Shown here: positions 35,884 through 49,084 of the stretch, one piece after another
Position numbering within the stretch: position 1 is the stretch's first letter
Layout of the letters: each line of letters begins with the position of its first letter
NCBI GenBank assembly: GCA_963675785.1
Contig: OY776562.1
Location: forward strand, 74,516-138,515
Length of the DNA: 64,000 bases
Origin: Anaerolineae bacterium
GTDB lineage: Bacteria; Chloroflexota; Anaerolineae; UBA1429
Reading direction: 5' to 3'
Notes under the pieces: model-generated
The model's input: the letters and a program-made list of their open reading frames with translations, nothing else
What the model was told of the DNA's origin: nothing
The model's database searches: none
Made by a program: the position numbers and the translations under genes

Positions 35884-36231
35884 TTATTCCTTGGTTTTAT
35901 CCTGTTCAAAAAGACGAATCAGCACAAAGACCAAGATAACCGATAACCCACCTAGCACCAAGCCACGTGCTAACTTGTGTTTGGCAACGGCTTTGTAGTC
36001 AAAAGTAATCTGTGAACGCTGATTTTCTGCTGCAACGCGCAAATTGGCCTCAAGTTTCTCTCGAAAGGCATCAGGAGCGGTACCAGCGATTTTGACCTGA
36101 CCTTGTATTGCATCTTCGACAGGCCCCAAATCGCGTGGGCGTAGAATACCGGCCTTTTCAAGCCGTACGCGTGCTTTGTTGTGTAAGGATTCTAGTTTGG
36201 TGGAAGCAGGCCGATTCTTGAATTCTTGCAT
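35884..36231 (-). CDS. Tail-anchored membrane protein translationally coupled to the ECF sigma factor (candidate anti-sigma factor)
   Basis: 115 aa with a single C-terminal TM (LVLGGLSVILVFVLI). Its start overlaps the sigma-factor stop. It has no zinc anti-sigma HxxxCxxC motif. Confidence 0.4.
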   Translation of the reverse strand: MQEFKNRPASTKLESLHNKARVRLEKAGILRPRDLGPVEDAIQGQVKIAGTAPDAFREKLEANLRVAAENQRSQITFDYKAVAKHKLARGLVLGGLSVILVFVLIRLFEQDKTKE

Positions 36232-36797
36232 CAGAGATCAAGCCCTCTCTTTATCATGCTCTTGCGCAGAGCAAGGAGCGTGCGGTGGTAGAGCGATTTG
36301 ATCGCCCCTTCGGATTTGCCCATAATCTCGCCTATCTCTGCGTTGCTGAATCCCTCGATAAACTTGAGAAAGATTAACTCTTGGCGTCGGGCATCTAGTT
36401 CTTGTATGGCTTCATTTAAATACTCGTTGTCATCATCAATTAACGTAATTGTCTCTGGCCGGGTTTCATGTCGATCGGGCAGAATGAGGGCATCGATAGA
36501 TACCGTTGGGCGGCGCTTGTGATCACGGTGCCAGTTCGAGAGAAGATTATGCGCAATGCGATATAGCCAAGCCGAAAAAGGATAGCCCTTATCTTCATAG
36601 CTTTGAATGTGTGAGAGGGCCCTAAAGAATGTACGGGATGTGATATCCTCGGCATCATGCACGTTGCCGACGCGGTGATAAATATACCGATAGATGCGAT
36701 CCACATAGAGGGCGTAAAGCTCGCCAAAAGCATCGGGATCTTGTTGCGCTCTTGAGACAAGCTCTCGCTCGTCAGTTGTGTTTTCCTCGATGCCCAT
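36231..36797 (-). CDS. ECF-type sigma-70 family RNA polymerase sigma factor
   Basis: Region 2 (YRYIYHRVGNVHDAEDITSRTFFRA) and region 4 (FIEGFSNAEIGEIMGKSEGAIKSLYHRTLLALR). Confidence 0.8.
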   Translation of the reverse strand: MGIEENTTDERELVSRAQQDPDAFGELYALYVDRIYRYIYHRVGNVHDAEDITSRTFFRALSHIQSYEDKGYPFSAWLYRIAHNLLSNWHRDHKRRPTVSIDALILPDRHETRPETITLIDDDNEYLNEAIQELDARRQELIFLKFIEGFSNAEIGEIMGKSEGAIKSLYHRTLLALRKSMIKRGLDL

Positions 36798-36999
36798 GGC
36801 AGAATACCCTTCTCTCTCTGAAAACCCGCAAGGCTGCTAAAAGTTGCATCACTCTGCGAATCACGCATAGTCTATCAAAACCAAGAGGTTGCTCCAAGTT
36901 TTGGGGTACGGATTCTGGCTGGCAACGTTGACATATGCTATTAGCGTGTCTTATAATGGCGCCAGTACTCTGGGGACATGAGGCAAAGGAGGCGCTTGG

Positions 37000-37530
37000 A
37001 TGTCGCCCAATCAAAAACAAGATCTTTGGCCAAAGTGGATGTGGATTGCTGCGCCTGTTCTGGTCGTTGTGGTTACAGTCGGGCTTTGGTGGGCCATCAT
37101 CCCGCGTGACTCTGACGGCGCGGATGTAGATCCTACTGCCACAGCGCAGGCTTTGGCAGATCAGCCAACGCAAGCACCAACACTTGTCAGCACGCTTTCG
37201 GCATTGCCGACGACAACTGCAGATGTTCCTGTGCTGCCGACTGTTGGTTCCCCAAGTGCTGAGGCTGCTGCCACACCTTCTGCTGCGCCGACCGTAGATG
37301 CAGGTATCGTGATCGGTGATGATGTTGAGGTGTCTGGCACCAGTGGTGTTCTGAACATGCGCGATGGCGCTGGCACCAGCTATTCGGTGGTTGGTACCCT
37401 TTCGGAGGGGGCCATAGTCGAAGTAGTTGGCGGTCCGCAAACGGCTGACGGCTATACCTGGTTCCAGGTTCGTACAGATGATGGTACGGTTGGCTGGGCT
37501 GCCGACGATTGGCTGGAAGAAGTCAAGTAG
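37000..37530 (+). CDS. Membrane-anchored bacterial SH3 (SH3b) domain protein
   Basis: N-terminal TM (IAAPVLVVVVTVGLWWAII), a low-complexity Ala/Thr/Pro linker, and a C-terminal SH3b-like region (GVLNMRDGAGTSYSVVGTLSEGAIVEVVGGPQTADGYTWFQV). The antisense ORF 36772..37440 is rejected. Confidence 0.55.
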   Translation: MSPNQKQDLWPKWMWIAAPVLVVVVTVGLWWAIIPRDSDGADVDPTATAQALADQPTQAPTLVSTLSALPTTTADVPVLPTVGSPSAEAAATPSAAPTVDAGIVIGDDVEVSGTSGVLNMRDGAGTSYSVVGTLSEGAIVEVVGGPQTADGYTWFQVRTDDGTVGWAADDWLEEVK

Positions 37531-37546
37531 GAGAACCGCTAGTAAA

Positions 37547-37579
37547 AGAGCGGAGATACACTATCTCCGCTCTTTTTTG
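37547..37579 (+). terminator. Intrinsic terminator (AGAGCGGAGATA / TATCTCCGCTCT + TTTTT)
   Basis: Perfect 12-bp inverted repeat plus T-run read from the sequence downstream of the SH3b gene. Confidence 0.55.
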
Positions 37580-37626: not shown

Positions 37627-39711
<2,085 letters not shown>

Positions 39712-39718
39712 GGCGGCA

Positions 39719-42307
39719 ATGGAACTAGAGCATTTATCGGATCGCAATAGTGCTGTTACGAGCATCCTGGCAGAGCTACTCGAGGATTCGCAGTATGCAA
39801 AACAGGTTGCGGCCCATGCCGTGATTCCTGCACGTGTGGCGAGATATGGACCTTGGCCTGAAGGCTTGGATGAGTGCATTATTGCTATGCTCGCGCGAGA
39901 GGGGTTCAATGCTCTTTACAGCCACCAGGCTCAAGCTGTAGAGACGGCGCTGCGGGGCGAAAACGTGGCTGTGGTGACGCCTACGGCTTCGGGCAAGTCG
40001 CTATGTTATGATTTGCCGATCTATCAGGCATTGCTGCATGAGCCGGGGGCCGCTGCACTTTTCCTATTCCCTACCAAGGCACTAGCACATGATCAGTTGG
40101 ATACGCTGAATCGTGAGATGGGTATGCTAGGCCTGAGCAATCAGGTTGACGCCTATGACGGTGATACGCCCACGTCCAGACGCACAGCGATACGTGAGAA
40201 TTGTCGGGTTATTGTTTCCAATCCCGATATGCTGCATGCCTCTATCCTGCCCTCGCACCCGCGCTGGCAGCGTTTTTTCTCCGGTCTTTGCTATGTGGTC
40301 ATCGACGAGATGCACCAATATCGTGGTGTGTTTGGCAGCCATGTGGCCAATGTCATTCGTCGTCTCAAGCGGCTGGCGGCTTTTTATGGCAGCAATCCAC
40401 AGTTCTTGTTGGCCTCGGCTACTATTGCCAATCCGCAGGAACTAGCCGAGACGCTCGTGGGGCAGCGGGTTACCGTGATTTCGGAAAACGGCGCGCCCTC
40501 GGGCGAAAAGCACCTCATCTTCTACAACCCCCCGGTCATTGATGCAGCTCTGGGCATTCGCCGCTCGTATACGTTCGATGTGGCTTCTATTGCCCAGCGG
40601 GCACTGGTGGCAGGTGTGCAGAGCATTGTTTTTACCCGCTCGCGCCTGGTAACAGAGTTGTTGCTGCGTGTGCTGCGAGAGAATGCGCCGATTGGGACTC
40701 GGGCCGATGGGGTTATCGCCGGATACCGCGGTGGTTACCTTCCTGTAGAGCGCCGCGCCATAGAAAAGGGCTTGCGTGAGGGAGCGATTCGGGCTGTAGT
40801 GGGAACCAATGCCCTGGAATTGGGCGTTGATATTGGGGGACTAGATGTGGCCATTATGAGTGGCTATCCCGGCTCTATTGCTAGTACCTGGCAACAAGCC
40901 GGACGTGCTGGTCGCGGACAGGCTCCCAGTGTGGCCGTACTCGTGGCTTCGCCAGATCCCTTGGATCAATACATCGTCAGACACCCCGAGTATGTGACGG
41001 GGAGTTCGCCAGAGCGTGCTCTGATCGATCCCAATAACGTTTATTTGTTATTGCAGCATCTGAAATGTGCCTTGTTTGAGCTTCCGCTTGAGCAGGATGA
41101 TGCTCCCAACGGATCGGCGGTACGTCAGGTGCTTGATTATTTGGTAGAAGAAGGCTGGGCCTCTAGGCGCAATGGCCGCTGGCATTGGGCAGGCACAGGG
41201 CATCCACCATCGGATATCTCACTGCGCACCAGCCAACCAGACATCGCTACTGTGGTGGCGCAGGACGAGACGGGCAAAAGCGTAACCATTGGCCAGTGCG
41301 ATTGGGCTAGCGTGCCCAGGCTTTTGCACGAGGGTGCGATTTATATGCACTCTGGGCAGCAATATTTGGTTGAGCATTTGGATTGGGAGCAGGGATTAGC
41401 CGAGACGCGTCTTGTCGAGATGGATTATTACACGCGAGCTTCCAGCAACACCAAGCTCTTGGTTCAAGAGGTTTGGACAGAGACGCCGTATACTGGCATG
41501 TTGCTGGGTTATGGACAAGTTAGCGTGACCTCGCAGGTGACAGGATATCGGCGCATCCGCTTGGATACCAACGAAACCTTGGGTTGGGGTGAGATAGATT
41601 TGCCGCCACAGACCATGATGACGACGGCTACCTGGTGTGAGTTGTCTGCTGAGCTGATCCAGCAACTCGTTTTGCAGGGCGTTGATCAAGTGATCACTCT
41701 GGGCTCTCGCGGCCCAAATTGGCCCACCCAGCGAGAGGCTGCTCGCCAGCGCGATGGCTTTTGTTGCGTGCGTTGTGGCGCACCAGAGCAACCTGAGAGG
41801 CCGCATCACGTACATCATTTGGTACCGTTTCGCGAGTTTCATTGGGTTCCGGGGCATAACCAGAATTATGCACGGGCCAACGATCTGGATAATCTGATTA
41901 CCCTCTGTCCTGATTGTCATCGTGAAGCCGAAAAAGTTGTGGTTGCCCGCAGTGCTTTGGCTGGGCTGGGGCGTGTATTAAATAATTTGGTGCCACTGTT
42001 TGCCATGTGTGACCGGAACGATGTGGGCATTCTTACTGAGGGCGCTGTTTTGGGAGCGACTCGACCGCGTCTCTACATCTATGACGAGATCCCGGCTGGT
42101 GTAGGCCTGGCCGAACGCGTAATGCAGGTCTTTGTGGAATTGATGGATGCGGCTGCCGAGTTGGTGGCGAACTGTGGTTGCGAAGCAGGCTGTCCATCTT
42201 GTGTTGGCCCGGTAGAAACATCTGGTGCAGAGACCAAGCGCCAGGTTGTATTGCTAGCGCAGGCCCTTGGTAGAGCCATGCGTGTGGAATTCGAGAAGGA
42301 AAATTAA
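39719..42307 (+). CDS. MrfA/YprA-like SF2 DEXH helicase with a DUF1998-type C-terminal domain that contains an HNH nuclease-like motif
   Basis: N-terminal GFNALYSHQ, Walker A TPTASGKSL, DEMH box, and helicase-C motifs (QQAGRAGRG). The C-terminal region reads CVRCG...HHVHHLVP...N...NDLDNLITLCPDCH, then CGCEAGCPSCV. Start at ATG 39719, 7 nt after the ligA stop. Confidence 0.8.
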   Translation: MELEHLSDRNSAVTSILAELLEDSQYAKQVAAHAVIPARVARYGPWPEGLDECIIAMLAREGFNALYSHQAQAVETALRGENVAVVTPTASGKSLCYDLPIYQALLHEPGAAALFLFPTKALAHDQLDTLNREMGMLGLSNQVDAYDGDTPTSRRTAIRENCRVIVSNPDMLHASILPSHPRWQRFFSGLCYVVIDEMHQYRGVFGSHVANVIRRLKRLAAFYGSNPQFLLASATIANPQELAETLVGQRVTVISENGAPSGEKHLIFYNPPVIDAALGIRRSYTFDVASIAQRALVAGVQSIVFTRSRLVTELLLRVLRENAPIGTRADGVIAGYRGGYLPVERRAIEKGLREGAIRAVVGTNALELGVDIGGLDVAIMSGYPGSIASTWQQAGRAGRGQAPSVAVLVASPDPLDQYIVRHPEYVTGSSPERALIDPNNVYLLLQHLKCALFELPLEQDDAPNGSAVRQVLDYLVEEGWASRRNGRWHWAGTGHPPSDISLRTSQPDIATVVAQDETGKSVTIGQCDWASVPRLLHEGAIYMHSGQQYLVEHLDWEQGLAETRLVEMDYYTRASSNTKLLVQEVWTETPYTGMLLGYGQVSVTSQVTGYRRIRLDTNETLGWGEIDLPPQTMMTTATWCELSAELIQQLVLQGVDQVITLGSRGPNWPTQREAARQRDGFCCVRCGAPEQPERPHHVHHLVPFREFHWVPGHNQNYARANDLDNLITLCPDCHREAEKVVVARSALAGLGRVLNNLVPLFAMCDRNDVGILTEGAVLGATRPRLYIYDEIPAGVGLAERVMQVFVELMDAAAELVANCGCEAGCPSCVGPVETSGAETKRQVVLLAQALGRAMRVEFEKEN

Positions 42308-44065
42308 ATGAAGAGCCTGTGGCGTTCGCTGCGTTACCTAAAGCCTTATTGGCTTTTGGCGTTGGCGACACTGATCACTCTGTTTATCTCTGTTGGCGGC
42401 ATGTTGGCCATACCATCATTTGCTCAGCGCCTTGTCGATGAGGGCATCAACGGCGGTGATTTGAATGCTGTTTGGCGCTGGATGACGTTCATGATCATTG
42501 GTGCCATCATCTATGGCGTTTTTGCATTCTTGCAAGGCGCTCTGGCCGCACGGACGGCGCAAGGTGTGGCGTATGATCTGCGCAACGATGTCTATGAAAA
42601 GATTCAATCGCTGTCCTTTAGTTACCATGATAAATCACAGACCGGGCAACTGCTGACACGGGCGACCTCGGATGTGGATCGGGTACGCATGTTTGTGGGC
42701 AGCGGGGCCGTGCAATTCATTAGCGCCATCGTCATCATGGTTGGCACTCTGATGCTCATCTTTTCGGTGAACGCTCGGCTTTCGCTCATCATGGTAGCAG
42801 CCATGCCCTTAACCTTTGGCGTATTTTGGGCCTTTTCTCGGGCGGCCATGCCCCTGTTTAGAACCATCCAGGAGCGTTTGGGCGTGCTCAATACCATTTT
42901 GCAGGAAAATCTGGCCGGTGTGCGCGTTGTCAAGGCTTTTGTTCGTCATGATTATGAGATTGAGCGTTTTGCCGCGGCCAATACGGATTATTACGACGTC
43001 AACGTAGAGGTCAACAACATTCTTTCGCTGGCCTTTCCCACAGTGTTTGGCATTTCTAACCTCATCACATTGTTCGTCTATCTTTTTGGGGGACAGCAGG
43101 TCATTGGCGGGATATTGACCACTGGCGAACTGGTGGCTTTTGCCAGTTACGTGCTGATGGCTTTTTTCCCAGTGCTGCAGTTGGGCATGATCATCGCCAT
43201 GGTTTCGCAAGCAGCTGCCTCGGGTGAACGCGTATTCGAGATTCTCGATGCGCGCTCCGAAGTCGAAGAAAAATCGGGTGCTGTCGAATTGCCACAGGTT
43301 GAGGGCCGGGTGAGTTTCGAGGACGTGACCTTTCGCTATGTTTCTAGCGGCGATCCAGTTTTGTGCGGCATTACGCTGGAGGCAGAACCGGGACAGATGG
43401 TGGCTCTGCTGGGTTCTACTGGTTCTGGCAAGTCAACCATCATCAATCTCATCCCTCGCTTTTACGATGTGACAGAAGGGCGCATTCTGATCGATGGCTA
43501 TGACATTCGCGAAGTCACCATCGAGTCGTTACGCCGGCAGATTGGCATTGTGCTGCAAGAGACAAACCTGTTTGAAGGTTCTGTACGCGACAACATTGCC
43601 TTTGGCAGACCTAATGCTTCGCTAGAAGAGGTTATCGCGGCGGCTCGAGCGGCTGAGGCTGACGAGTTTATCACAGCGTTTGAACATGGCTATGACACCC
43701 GTGTTGGCGAGCGTGGAACAACACTTTCGGGTGGCCAAAAGCAGCGTATTGCCATCGCACGCGCGCTTATGCTGGATCCAAGAATTCTCATTCTCGATGA
43801 TGCTACTTCTAGCGTTGATCTATCTACTGAGCTGCGTATTCAAAAAGCGTTGGACAGGCTGATGGCAGGAAGGACCAGTTTCGTCATTGCTCAGCGAGTG
43901 GCTACAGTGCTGAATGCCGATCAAATTCTAGTGCTCGACGGTGGGCGCATCGCGGCCAAGGGTACTCATGAAGAGCTGCTGAGGGATAGCGAGTTGTACG
44001 CCGAGATTTATAGCTCGCAGCTTCAGCGGCCAGAAGATAATAGCGACGCGGAGGTCATGCGATGA
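42308..44065 (+). CDS. ABC exporter subunit (TMD-NBD half-transporter) with a non-canonical Walker B (LILDDATS)
   Basis: Six TM helices, Walker A GSTGSGKST, canonical signature LSGGQKQRIAIARAL, and Walker B followed by Asp instead of the catalytic Glu. Its ATG immediately follows the helicase stop. Confidence 0.85.
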   Translation: MKSLWRSLRYLKPYWLLALATLITLFISVGGMLAIPSFAQRLVDEGINGGDLNAVWRWMTFMIIGAIIYGVFAFLQGALAARTAQGVAYDLRNDVYEKIQSLSFSYHDKSQTGQLLTRATSDVDRVRMFVGSGAVQFISAIVIMVGTLMLIFSVNARLSLIMVAAMPLTFGVFWAFSRAAMPLFRTIQERLGVLNTILQENLAGVRVVKAFVRHDYEIERFAAANTDYYDVNVEVNNILSLAFPTVFGISNLITLFVYLFGGQQVIGGILTTGELVAFASYVLMAFFPVLQLGMIIAMVSQAAASGERVFEILDARSEVEEKSGAVELPQVEGRVSFEDVTFRYVSSGDPVLCGITLEAEPGQMVALLGSTGSGKSTIINLIPRFYDVTEGRILIDGYDIREVTIESLRRQIGIVLQETNLFEGSVRDNIAFGRPNASLEEVIAAARAAEADEFITAFEHGYDTRVGERGTTLSGGQKQRIAIARALMLDPRILILDDATSSVDLSTELRIQKALDRLMAGRTSFVIAQRVATVLNADQILVLDGGRIAAKGTHEELLRDSELYAEIYSSQLQRPEDNSDAEVMR

Positions 44066-45900
44066 GCTTTCGGAGTGATGTACGACACGCCTCGAACTCT
44101 TCACATGTAATAAGGCGTTTGTGGCACTATTTCTCGCCTTTTTGGAAGAGATTGGTCGCCCTGTTTTTGCTTTTGATCGTCAGCACTGTGGCTGAAGTTG
44201 CTTCGCCGTATCTCATCGGTGTGGCCTTGGATGGTTTTATCGACCCTGGGTTGGTTGATCTGCCCGGCTGGTTGCTATGGTTGGCAGGTGGAGATCCTAC
44301 TCGGATCGAGGGCCTAGCTATTACGGCAGCCTGTCTTGGCGGCGTATACGCCATAAGCTGGCTGATGAGTGTGGTTCAATTCAGGCTGATGGTACGCATG
44401 TCTCAGCGAGTACTGTTAGATTTGCGAGCAGACATTTTCGACAAAGTACAGCGGCTTTCCCTCTCTTTCTTTGATACCCATGAAGCCGGCGACCTGATGA
44501 GCCGGCTGATCAATGATACACGCGTAATCAATGATGTGTTTGGGCCAGGCATTATGCGCATGCTGCGTATGGCTATGGGCATGACGGGCATTTTGGCCAC
44601 CATGTTCACGCTCAGCTGGCAGCTTTCGCTGGCTTCATTCGCACTGGTTCCTTTTGTGCTGGTACTTACGGTGGTGCTTTCACGCCGAGTGCGTACTGCC
44701 TATCGTGTAACCCGCAAGACCGTGGGTGATGTGAGCGCTGAGCTTCAAGAGAACATCTCTGGCGTGCGTGAGGTGCAGGCTTTTGCCCGTGAGAATGAGA
44801 CTTTTGAAGAGTTTCGTGCGGTCAATGCCCGTAACCGCGAAGCGAATGTGCGTGCTGAAACCATCATGGCCGGATTCGGTCCTGCGCTCAGTGTGCTGAG
44901 CACCGTGGCCCAGGCCATGGTGGCCGGTATCGGTGGCTATCTTGTACTAGGTTTTGACCCACCCATAGTTTCCATCGGTTTGATCGTCTCGTTTGTTACC
45001 TATGTGGATCGCTTTTATTCGCCCATCCGCGAGATCGCTCAATTGTGGGGTCAGTTCCAATCGGCCATTGCCGGTGCAGAACGCATTTTTGAGCTGCTCG
45101 ATGAGCCAGAGACCGTGAAGGATGCGCCGGATGCTGTTGAGCTAGGATCAATTCAGGGGCAAATCGCTTATGACGGCATTTGCTTCTCTTATGTCCCCGA
45201 AGAGCCTGTGCTGCAGGATGTCTCGCTCAAGATCGAACCGGGGCAAACAGTGGCTTTTGTGGGGCCCACTGGTGCTGGCAAGACCACTATGGTCAACCTG
45301 CTCATGCGTTTTTATGATGTGTGCGGCGGGGCGGTTCGAGTGGATGGTCATGATGTGCGTAAAGTAACGCTGGCCAGCTTGCGTTCGCAGATCGGCATTG
45401 TGCTGCAGGATACTTTTCTCTTTTCCGGCACGGTGATGGATAATTTGCGTTACGGCCGACTGGATGCCACTGATGACGAAGTGGTGGAAGCGGCGCGAGT
45501 GGCCAACGCCCACGCCTTTATCGAGCGCTTGCCCGAAGGTTATCAGACCTTGATCGGCGAGCGCGGCTCCAATTTGAGCCAGGGCAATCGGCAATTGCTC
45601 TCCATCGCTCGCGCGGTACTCAATAATCCGCGAATTTTGGTGCTAGACGAGGCCACCAGCTCGGTGGATACGCGCACAGAGCTACTCATCCAAGACGCGC
45701 TCTCGCGCTTGCTGGATGGCCGTACCAGTCTGGTTATCGCCCATCGCCTCAGCACCATTCGCAGTGCAGATCTCATTGCCGTGATCAAAGGGGGACGCAT
45801 TATCGAATCGGGCAAGCATCAGGAATTGTTGGCCCAGGACGGTGTTTACCACGAGTTGTACATGAGCCAGTTTCGCCGTGAGACTGACGAACCTGCCTAG
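44062..45900 (+). CDS. ABC exporter subunit (TMD-NBD half-transporter) with a degenerate signature motif (LSQGNRQ)
   Basis: Walker A GPTGAGKTT, Walker B LVLDEATS (catalytic Glu present), and a degenerate C-loop LSQGNRQLLSIARA. It overlaps its partner by 4 nt. Confidence 0.85.
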   Translation: MSFRSDVRHASNSSHVIRRLWHYFSPFWKRLVALFLLLIVSTVAEVASPYLIGVALDGFIDPGLVDLPGWLLWLAGGDPTRIEGLAITAACLGGVYAISWLMSVVQFRLMVRMSQRVLLDLRADIFDKVQRLSLSFFDTHEAGDLMSRLINDTRVINDVFGPGIMRMLRMAMGMTGILATMFTLSWQLSLASFALVPFVLVLTVVLSRRVRTAYRVTRKTVGDVSAELQENISGVREVQAFARENETFEEFRAVNARNREANVRAETIMAGFGPALSVLSTVAQAMVAGIGGYLVLGFDPPIVSIGLIVSFVTYVDRFYSPIREIAQLWGQFQSAIAGAERIFELLDEPETVKDAPDAVELGSIQGQIAYDGICFSYVPEEPVLQDVSLKIEPGQTVAFVGPTGAGKTTMVNLLMRFYDVCGGAVRVDGHDVRKVTLASLRSQIGIVLQDTFLFSGTVMDNLRYGRLDATDDEVVEAARVANAHAFIERLPEGYQTLIGERGSNLSQGNRQLLSIARAVLNNPRILVLDEATSSVDTRTELLIQDALSRLLDGRTSLVIAHRLSTIRSADLIAVIKGGRIIESGKHQELLAQDGVYHELYMSQFRRETDEPA

Positions 45901-49001: not shown

Positions 49002-49084
49002 TAGGGCGGGAGGGGGTCGAACCCTCACGGTGTTACCACCAGCGGATTTTAAGTCCGAAGCGTCTGCCATTTCGCCACCGCCCC
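49002..49084 (-). tRNA. tRNA-Leu (anticodon UAA)
   Basis: Folded by hand from the minus strand. The acceptor stem is GGGGCGG/CCGCCCU, the D-stem is 3 bp, the anticodon loop is CUUAAAA (U33, UAA, A37), a long variable arm is present, and the T-loop is GGTTCGA. No CCA is encoded. Confidence 0.8.

Follow-up and report, generated by a model that had tools for sequence, protein, structure and literature searches.

A 64,000-nucleotide stretch of DNA from an Anaerolineae bacterium (NCBI GenBank assembly GCA_963675785.1, contig OY776562.1, positions 74,516 to 138,515 of the forward strand; hereafter the window) encodes a superfamily 2 (SF2) helicase of the MrfA/YprA family that carries an HNH domain. 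The domain is inserted at the boundary between the CON and MZB domains, N-terminal to the four-Cys site of DUF1998. That it is a genuine HNH domain is practically certain in our own judgement, which is not a computed value, and a judgement of the same kind makes its catalytic activity, as predicted from the conserved residues, highly probable. The reading preferred here, and considered probable on balance, is that of a helicase with a catalytically competent, nicking HNH domain, which would work alongside the exonuclease MrfB.

An HNH domain at the CON/MZB boundary of an MrfA-family helicase

The top solved relative of the helicase was Bacillus subtilis MrfA/YprA (PDB 6ZNP), with E = 5e-213, 713 bits and, in Foldseek, 40% identity over 834 aligned columns of chain A. 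The full-length AlphaFold2 (AF2) model had a mean predicted local distance difference test (pLDDT) score of 90.6 and a predicted template modelling score (pTM) of 0.89, with the HNH blocks at pLDDT 84–97; its best fold match was the DNA-bound MrfA structure 6ZNP_A (template modelling score, TM, 0.81). The domain order NTR, RecA1, RecA2, WH, OB, CON and MZB is common to the window protein and B. subtilis MrfA (6ZNP/6ZNQ/6ZNS), and the four-Cys MZB site is kept. OB and CON were assigned by an unbroken alignment to MrfA chain positions 8–633, with which the β-strands of the model agree. From the 40% identity to MrfA, the protein is expected to be a 3′-to-5′ ATP-dependent DNA helicase.

Residues are numbered from an in-frame ATG at 39662 (frame +2), which gives a form of 881 amino acids (aa) whose gene overlaps ligA by 50 nucleotides (nt). 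The ATG at 39719, 7 nt beyond the ligA stop codon (TGA, 39709–39711), is the likelier start, because a GAGG lies 6–7 nt upstream of it and because the database protein P0026, identical to the window helicase, begins at the same position (862 aa). Two antisense open reading frames (ORFs), 41396–41920 and 42033–42371 on the reverse strand, were regarded as by-products of the coding frame.

The HNH motif consists of C702-V-R-C705 (41765–41776), H715-H716-V-H718-H719 (41804–41818), N733, N740, N744 and C749-P-D-C752-H753 (41906–41920). A preliminary description of this DNA, made from the sequence alone, had reported an apparently intact HNH motif in an MrfA-type helicase over 41762–42205 (residues 701–848), and the peptide that it quoted was indeed found in frame. 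Its pattern was correct, with both spacers given as nine residues being eight residues long. The second cluster that it named, C838-G-C840-EAG-C844-PS-C847-V848 (42173–42205), is present as well and starts 85 aa after H753, not 80 aa downstream. C702, C705, C749 and C752 are predicted to be the structural zinc ligands of the HNH domain, H718 a metal ligand, H719 the general base, N744 (and N740) the structural Asn, and H753 a further metal ligand. Human ZRANB3 cannot cleave without the equivalents D1020, H1021 and H1045; its Cys4 zinc takes no part in catalysis (PMC5481773). The window protein thus has two independent Cys4 sites, the structural zinc site of the HNH domain (C702/C705/C749/C752) and that of MZB (C838/C840/C844/C847; 42173–42202), each Cys of the latter being kept in 119–120 of 120 homologs.

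A profile search, a structure model and an alignment across homologs had been suggested in the preliminary description, and all three were carried out. On the whole protein, Pfam PF01844 (HNH) matched residues 702–755 with 36.3 bits (E = 6e-9), and on the C-terminal 235 aa it scored 40.7 bits (E = 2.6e-10), the cutoff being 21.4; PF13391 (HNH_2) passed its threshold too. Since these scores exceed the cutoff, the motif is not a product of chance. The AF2 model of residues 666–768 had a core pLDDT above 90 and the strand-strand-helix arrangement of the ββα-metal fold. Fold searches with the HNH model returned mostly HNH nucleases; Foldseek gave McrA, and the GVE2 HNH at a probability of 1.0. The top structural neighbours were active HNH nucleases, including the nicking GVE2 HNH and Gme HNH and the helicase-linked ZRANB3 HNH. 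In the sequence alignment with the GVE2 HNH, H718-H719 falls on the D-H pair of that enzyme, and the preceding W..R...A..RD helix is common to both.

The site of insertion was read from the alignment to 6ZNP, which falls into two blocks: query residues 36–662 align to MrfA chain positions 8–633, and query residues 764–866 to positions 646–747. About 100 query residues (663–764) stand in place of a 13-residue MrfA linker (chain positions 633–646). Roske et al. assign residues 557–630 of MrfA to CON and residues 631–749 to MZB (PMC7797055); the chain index counted from the 6ZNP alignment runs about 2 ahead of that numbering. The insertion starts with a variable linker and a GPNW..QR..AR.RD helix, which are followed by the HNH core and then by a C-terminal helix. 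The HNH motif had been described as embedded in the DUF1998-type domain; the motif stands, and its placement is corrected here to a separate domain of about 100 aa, N-terminal to the MZB match (771–848), rather than a re-read zinc knuckle.

The NCBIfam model TIGR03817 matched the helicase with 683.8 bits, below its cutoff of 874.1 bits, and in two stretches, because the HNH insertion interrupts the helicase. Named public copies of the HNH helicase bear no more specific label than "DEAD/DEAH box helicase" or "DUF1998 domain-containing protein", and the sub-cutoff TIGR03817 score may be the reason for these generic names.

Conservation, distribution and origin of the module

Conservation was assessed on the best 120 full-length homologs (49–56% identity; from Chloroflexota/Anaerolineae metagenome-assembled genomes (MAGs) where named), nearly all of which carry a precomputed PF01844 annotation. 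C702, C705, H718, H719, N740, N744, C749, C752, H753, E757, W687, R697, D698 and F723 were invariant in 120/120, and H715 and N733 were kept in 118–119/120. The strict regular expression C..C...HH...C..CH was present in 141 of the 145 homologs covering the region; the other four have a longer loop or start inside the HNH domain, so that only the downstream part of the motif could be checked, and the motif was intact wherever it was covered. Mean conservation of the HNH module (0.74) equalled that of RecA1 (0.74) and was close to that of RecA2 (0.78), with lower values for the winged helix (0.63), MZB (0.61), OB-CON (0.58) and the linker preceding the module (0.47). The His-His dyad is lineage-specific, together with the whole module rather than by itself. 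Some HNH-MrfA homologs are longer by 90–190 aa, such as P0120 (1054 aa) and P0160 (948 aa; enlarged in the winged-helix region, 445–544).

For the distribution, GTDB genomes (one per species) were scanned with the pattern H[DHE]VHH[LIV]xPFR. At least 442 HNH-helicase loci were confirmed, a count that is a lower bound given the strictness of the pattern. Eighty of the 442 loci, each from a separate Chloroflexota species genome, were taken for all counts at locus level. All 80 belong to Chloroflexota (Anaerolineae/Anaerolineales, Caldilineae and Ardenticatenales), and all show the order N-terminal helicase part, HNH, MZB, except two that are cut by a contig end. When the 90-aa module was searched against 1.84 billion cluster representatives, 521 clusters were matched at E ≤ 1e-10. 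The GC content over the insertion equals that of the rest of the gene, with no anomaly. By these comparisons, the HNH insertion appears to be old, vertically inherited and selectively maintained in a large lineage.

Many of the best non-helicase matches to the module are proteins of 220–400 aa with repeated Cys4 zinc ribbons and a C-terminal HNH of the same subtype. This free-standing zinc-ribbon HNH family has 3–7 repeats of C..C..CGK.F...YCS..C (examples are P0204, P0207, P0172 and P0183). Members encoded on IMG/VR viral contigs (L083–L090) reach 51% identity to the module. The annotation HNH endonuclease is given to further members from haloarchaeal tailed viruses, Bacillus phage Sophrita and mycobacteriophages. 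The simplest origin of the module would be the in-frame insertion of a captured phage-type HNH gene.

Genomic neighbourhood in the window and in relatives

In the first neighbourhood of a relative, ligA, the HNH helicase gene and a histidine kinase gene are followed by the gene of a 444-aa RNase_H_2 and TPR protein, which matched the MrfB exonuclease core (PDB 8UN9) with E = 9e-33. To count MrfB orthologs, a hidden Markov model (HMM) was built from such RNase_H_2 and TPR proteins and run on the available flanks (within 10 kb). An MrfB ortholog was found in the flanks of 22 of the 80 loci, and in 14 of the 32 loci with at least 5 kb of sequence on both sides. Within the 22 loci, mrfB followed the helicase gene immediately and on the same strand in nine, lay one gene further in two, 7 kb downstream in one, and upstream and divergent in ten. 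Among the 56 loci whose upstream sequence extends to 2.5 kb or more, ligA lay directly upstream of the helicase gene in 17; mrfB was present as well in 11 of these. The order ligA-mrfA(HNH)-mrfB, with short intergenic gaps, is a conserved arrangement in Anaerolineae MAGs (L003, L006, L008, L009, L012, L015, L030, L031 and L037). The earlier suggestion that the helicase may bring its own nuclease and so do without a trans-acting MrfB was not supported by these counts, in which an MrfB ortholog is encoded near an intact HNH helicase in more than a quarter of the loci and immediately downstream in nine. Because HNH helicase and MrfB coexist, the HNH domain is taken to be an additional nuclease, not a substitute for MrfB.

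The features of the helicase and of its direct neighbours in the window are collected in Table 1. The ligA gene and the helicase gene are probably co-transcribed, since the ligA stop codon lies 7 nt before the helicase start. On the other side, two ABC exporter genes follow, the first of which has its ATG (42308) directly after the helicase stop codon (TAA, 42305–42307); no convincing terminator was found between the helicase and the exporter genes, which are probably on the same transcript. This arrangement suggests a ligA-mrfA-abc-abc transcript, in which a helicase for the repair of antibiotic-type DNA adducts would be paired with a drug-type efflux pump. The ABC exporters were considered as conserved partners of the helicase and rejected, as a similar downstream pair was present in only 1 of the 80 loci (L005).

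Table 1 Features of the helicase gene, its encoded domains and the adjacent genes (positions of the window; residues of the 881-aa form)
Feature	Position	Strand	Basis or remark
ligA, NAD-dependent DNA ligase	37633..39711	+	Pfam DNA_ligase_aden, 322 bits; OB, ZBD, HHH and BRCT domains
mrfA-like SF2 helicase gene with HNH insertion, 862 aa	39719..42307	+	Likely start 39719
RecA1 (DEAD, residues 87–260, motif II DEMH) and RecA2 (Helicase_C, 318–418)	39920..40915	+	Pfam, 113.8 and 48.7 bits
Winged helix (455–523), then OB and CON β-rich module (~524–662)	41024..41647	+	WHD_HRQ1, 33.3 bits
Lineage-specific insertion, residues 663–764	41648..41953	+	Faces MrfA linker only
HNH (ββα-metal) core, residues 702–755	41765..41926	+	Pfam PF01844
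MZB/DUF1998, residues 771–848	41972..42205	+	PF09369, 70 bits; aligns to MrfA chain 646–747
Two ABC exporter genes, each ABC_membrane and ABC_tran	42308..45900	+	Pfam; mutual overlap of 4 nt

Upstream of ligA, a gene for an ECF-type sigma-70 factor (36231–36797, reverse strand) slightly overlaps an upstream 222-aa ORF (36772–37440, reverse strand) that had no Pfam match and could encode an anti-sigma factor. A strong terminator-like, near-palindromic hairpin (37544–37576, scored on the forward strand) lies between this pair and ligA. At gathering threshold, Rfam matched nothing in the 64-kb window but a single tRNA gene (49002–49084, reverse strand).

Proposed role of the HNH domain, alternatives and significance

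The MrfA-family helicases studied so far (SftH and MrfA) are monomeric 3′–5′ enzymes (PMC12458937, PMC7797055). In MrfA, RecA2, OB, CON and MZB form the entry funnel for single-stranded DNA (ssDNA). MZB is where the 5′ end of the bound strand lies, and the displaced strand has been proposed to run between MZB and RecA2 (PMC7797055). The insertion is anchored about 20–30 residues before the MZB segment that contacts the 5′-terminal nucleotide. An AlphaFold-Multimer model of MrfAB puts the active site of MrfB at the rear of the motor, close to the free 3′ end (PMC11194089). The MrfAB model of B. subtilis names no incision nuclease (10.1101/426304).

Against this background the following course of events is proposed. 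An ancestor of a large Chloroflexota lineage would have acquired a complete HNH (His-Me finger) domain, in frame, at the CON/MZB junction. The domain would be catalytically competent and would nick one strand rather than cut both; nicking is the most likely mode because there is one HNH active site and the helicase family is monomeric, and the solved relatives nearest to the HNH domain include nickases. Because the insertion is anchored near the MZB segment lining the ssDNA entry, the HNH domain is expected at the front of the motor, that is, on the leading (5′) side relative to the presumed DNA path. There it could incise the tracked or the displaced strand, for instance where a bulky adduct has halted the motor, and act together with the 3′-to-5′ exonuclease MrfB at opposite ends of the tracked strand; two complementary nucleases at opposite strand ends would fit the co-occurrence of HNH and MrfB. 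LigA, encoded just upstream, may then seal the repaired strand. We tentatively extend this to the more specific possibility, held with less than even confidence, that the HNH domain provides the incision step absent from the MrfAB excision-repair model, with the helicase cutting the tracked strand ahead of itself on stalling and MrfB degrading from the 3′ end behind.

Several observations weigh against the preferred reading of a nicking helicase that works with MrfB. The Foldseek E-values for the isolated small HNH domain were weak (1e-2), with probabilities nonetheless at 0.99–1.0. At the position before the catalytic His, where an Asp is usual, the domain has a His (H718), which is compatible with activity in HNH enzymes and could change the metal preference. 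No MrfB homolog was detected in the 64-kb window by tblastn, and 58 of the 80 loci had none in the available sequence, so that coupling to MrfB is not universal. The same two absences would be expected if the HNH domain in cis replaced the MrfB exonuclease in trans and the pathway ran on a single polypeptide, and precedents are known in other YprA-family branches with fused nucleases (PMC12458937) and in an existing MrfA-MrfB fusion (10.1101/426304). We nevertheless consider such a replacement improbable, as MrfB orthologs are encoded nearby in the 22 loci described above, nine of them in the canonical mrfAB order with the HNH domain fully intact, and as an HNH endonuclease and a DEDDh 3′–5′ exonuclease are functionally non-equivalent. 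A non-catalytic, HNH-like zinc module that serves in DNA binding, in protein interaction or in stabilising the CON/MZB hinge is likewise unlikely, if marginally less so: had the module only a structural role, its Cys4 site should have been kept and its His and Asn residues lost, whereas the catalytic H718, H719, N744 and H753 are as invariant as the structural Cys, and all better-scoring structural neighbours of the domain are active nucleases.

The closest non-MrfA relatives of the HNH domain are HNH proteins encoded by phages and viruses, and PADLOC gave partial matches to the helicase core; both would suit a helicase-nuclease that acts in anti-phage defence, as Druantia DruE and ARMADA do, instead of in repair. 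The PADLOC matches, however, are limited to the RecA core and reach at most 141 bits, compared with the 713 bits to MrfA, and neither a PLD nor a Vsr domain was found in the helicase by Pfam. Its neighbours are ligA, mrfB and housekeeping genes in relatives, and ligA, ABC exporters and housekeeping genes in the window, with no defence islands; the occurrence of the 80 loci in separate species genomes and the absence of a GC anomaly point to vertical inheritance of a core gene. A role in defence, conceivable in principle for this helicase family (PMC12458937), is thus poorly favoured, at about the same level as replacement of MrfB. Least probable by far is that the module is the relic of a selfish element (homing-endonuclease or intein-like), lodged in a permissive linker and devoid of host function. 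The surface-linker site and the free-standing viral HNH proteins as nearest relatives would accord with such an origin, but no Hint or intein Pfam match was obtained at E-values up to 1, the insertion of about 100 aa consists of the HNH module alone, and the module has a fixed position in the examined genomes, conservation at the level of the motor and a GC content that matches the host gene.

The preferred architecture, an MrfA helicase with a putative HNH nickase, was compared with known systems. B. subtilis MrfA has the 13-residue linker and no nuclease of its own, its sole known partner nuclease being MrfB in trans, whereas the window protein has, at that place, about 100 residues that include the HNH domain. 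Human ZRANB3 (annealing helicase 2) also joins a motor to an HNH domain and is an ATP-dependent, structure-specific endonuclease; its motor, however, is an SNF2 translocase on double-stranded DNA, in contrast to the DExH ssDNA helicase of the window, and its HNH domain is C-terminal and has its own helical insert. ZRANB3 is a eukaryotic protein regulated by PCNA, and the two fusions do not share common descent. The HNH nicking endonuclease of phage GVE2 (5H0M/5H0O) and the viral zinc-ribbon HNH proteins are small free-standing proteins or have N-terminal zinc-ribbon repeats, none being within a helicase, and the MrfA version has a longer loop than theirs between the HNH strands (FREFGY.PG.N..Y). 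Druantia DruE, ARMADA and TALON, defence helicases of the YprA family, likewise carry a nuclease on the same polypeptide as a YprA-type core and an OB-CON-DUF1998 canopy (PMC12458937). The fused domain is of the PLD, Vsr/PD-(D/E)xK or inactive RNase H type and lies at the C-terminus, and the proteins are much larger, have BrxA-like inserts and are encoded in defence islands; the window protein, by contrast, has its HNH domain before MZB and belongs to the housekeeping MrfA branch.

A full-text literature search for MrfA, YprA or DUF1998 together with HNH returned no account of this architecture. The nucleases recorded in the 2025 survey of YprA-family architectures are of the PLD, Vsr, EEP and RNase H types, with no HNH in the MrfA/YprA-only branches (PMC12458937); the MrfA structure paper (PMC7797055) does not mention HNH, and the His-Me finger classification does not mention a fusion to DUF1998. 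As precomputed Pfam annotations show the domain, HNH-MrfA does not represent a new type of system; it is a variant within two well-known families that has gone undescribed. For annotation, the consequence is that the nuclease is absent from the product names of HNH-MrfA copies.

MrfAB is a recently found, UvrABC-independent bacterial excision repair pathway; its published model has a helicase and a 3′–5′ exonuclease, and no component that makes the first incision (10.1101/426304; PMC11194089). The endonuclease domain within the helicase, fully conserved in several Chloroflexota orders and often encoded beside mrfB and ligA, is a testable candidate for this step and a plausible incision nuclease of an MrfAB-type pathway. 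HNH-MrfA would also be a natural bacterial case of motor-coupled nicking, as predicted here, analogous to eukaryotic ZRANB3. If the proposal is true, ligA-mrfA(HNH)-mrfB in Anaerolineae would form a module complete in itself and independent of UvrABC, able to nick, unwind, resect and seal, and a trans-acting nickase would be predicted in organisms such as B. subtilis.

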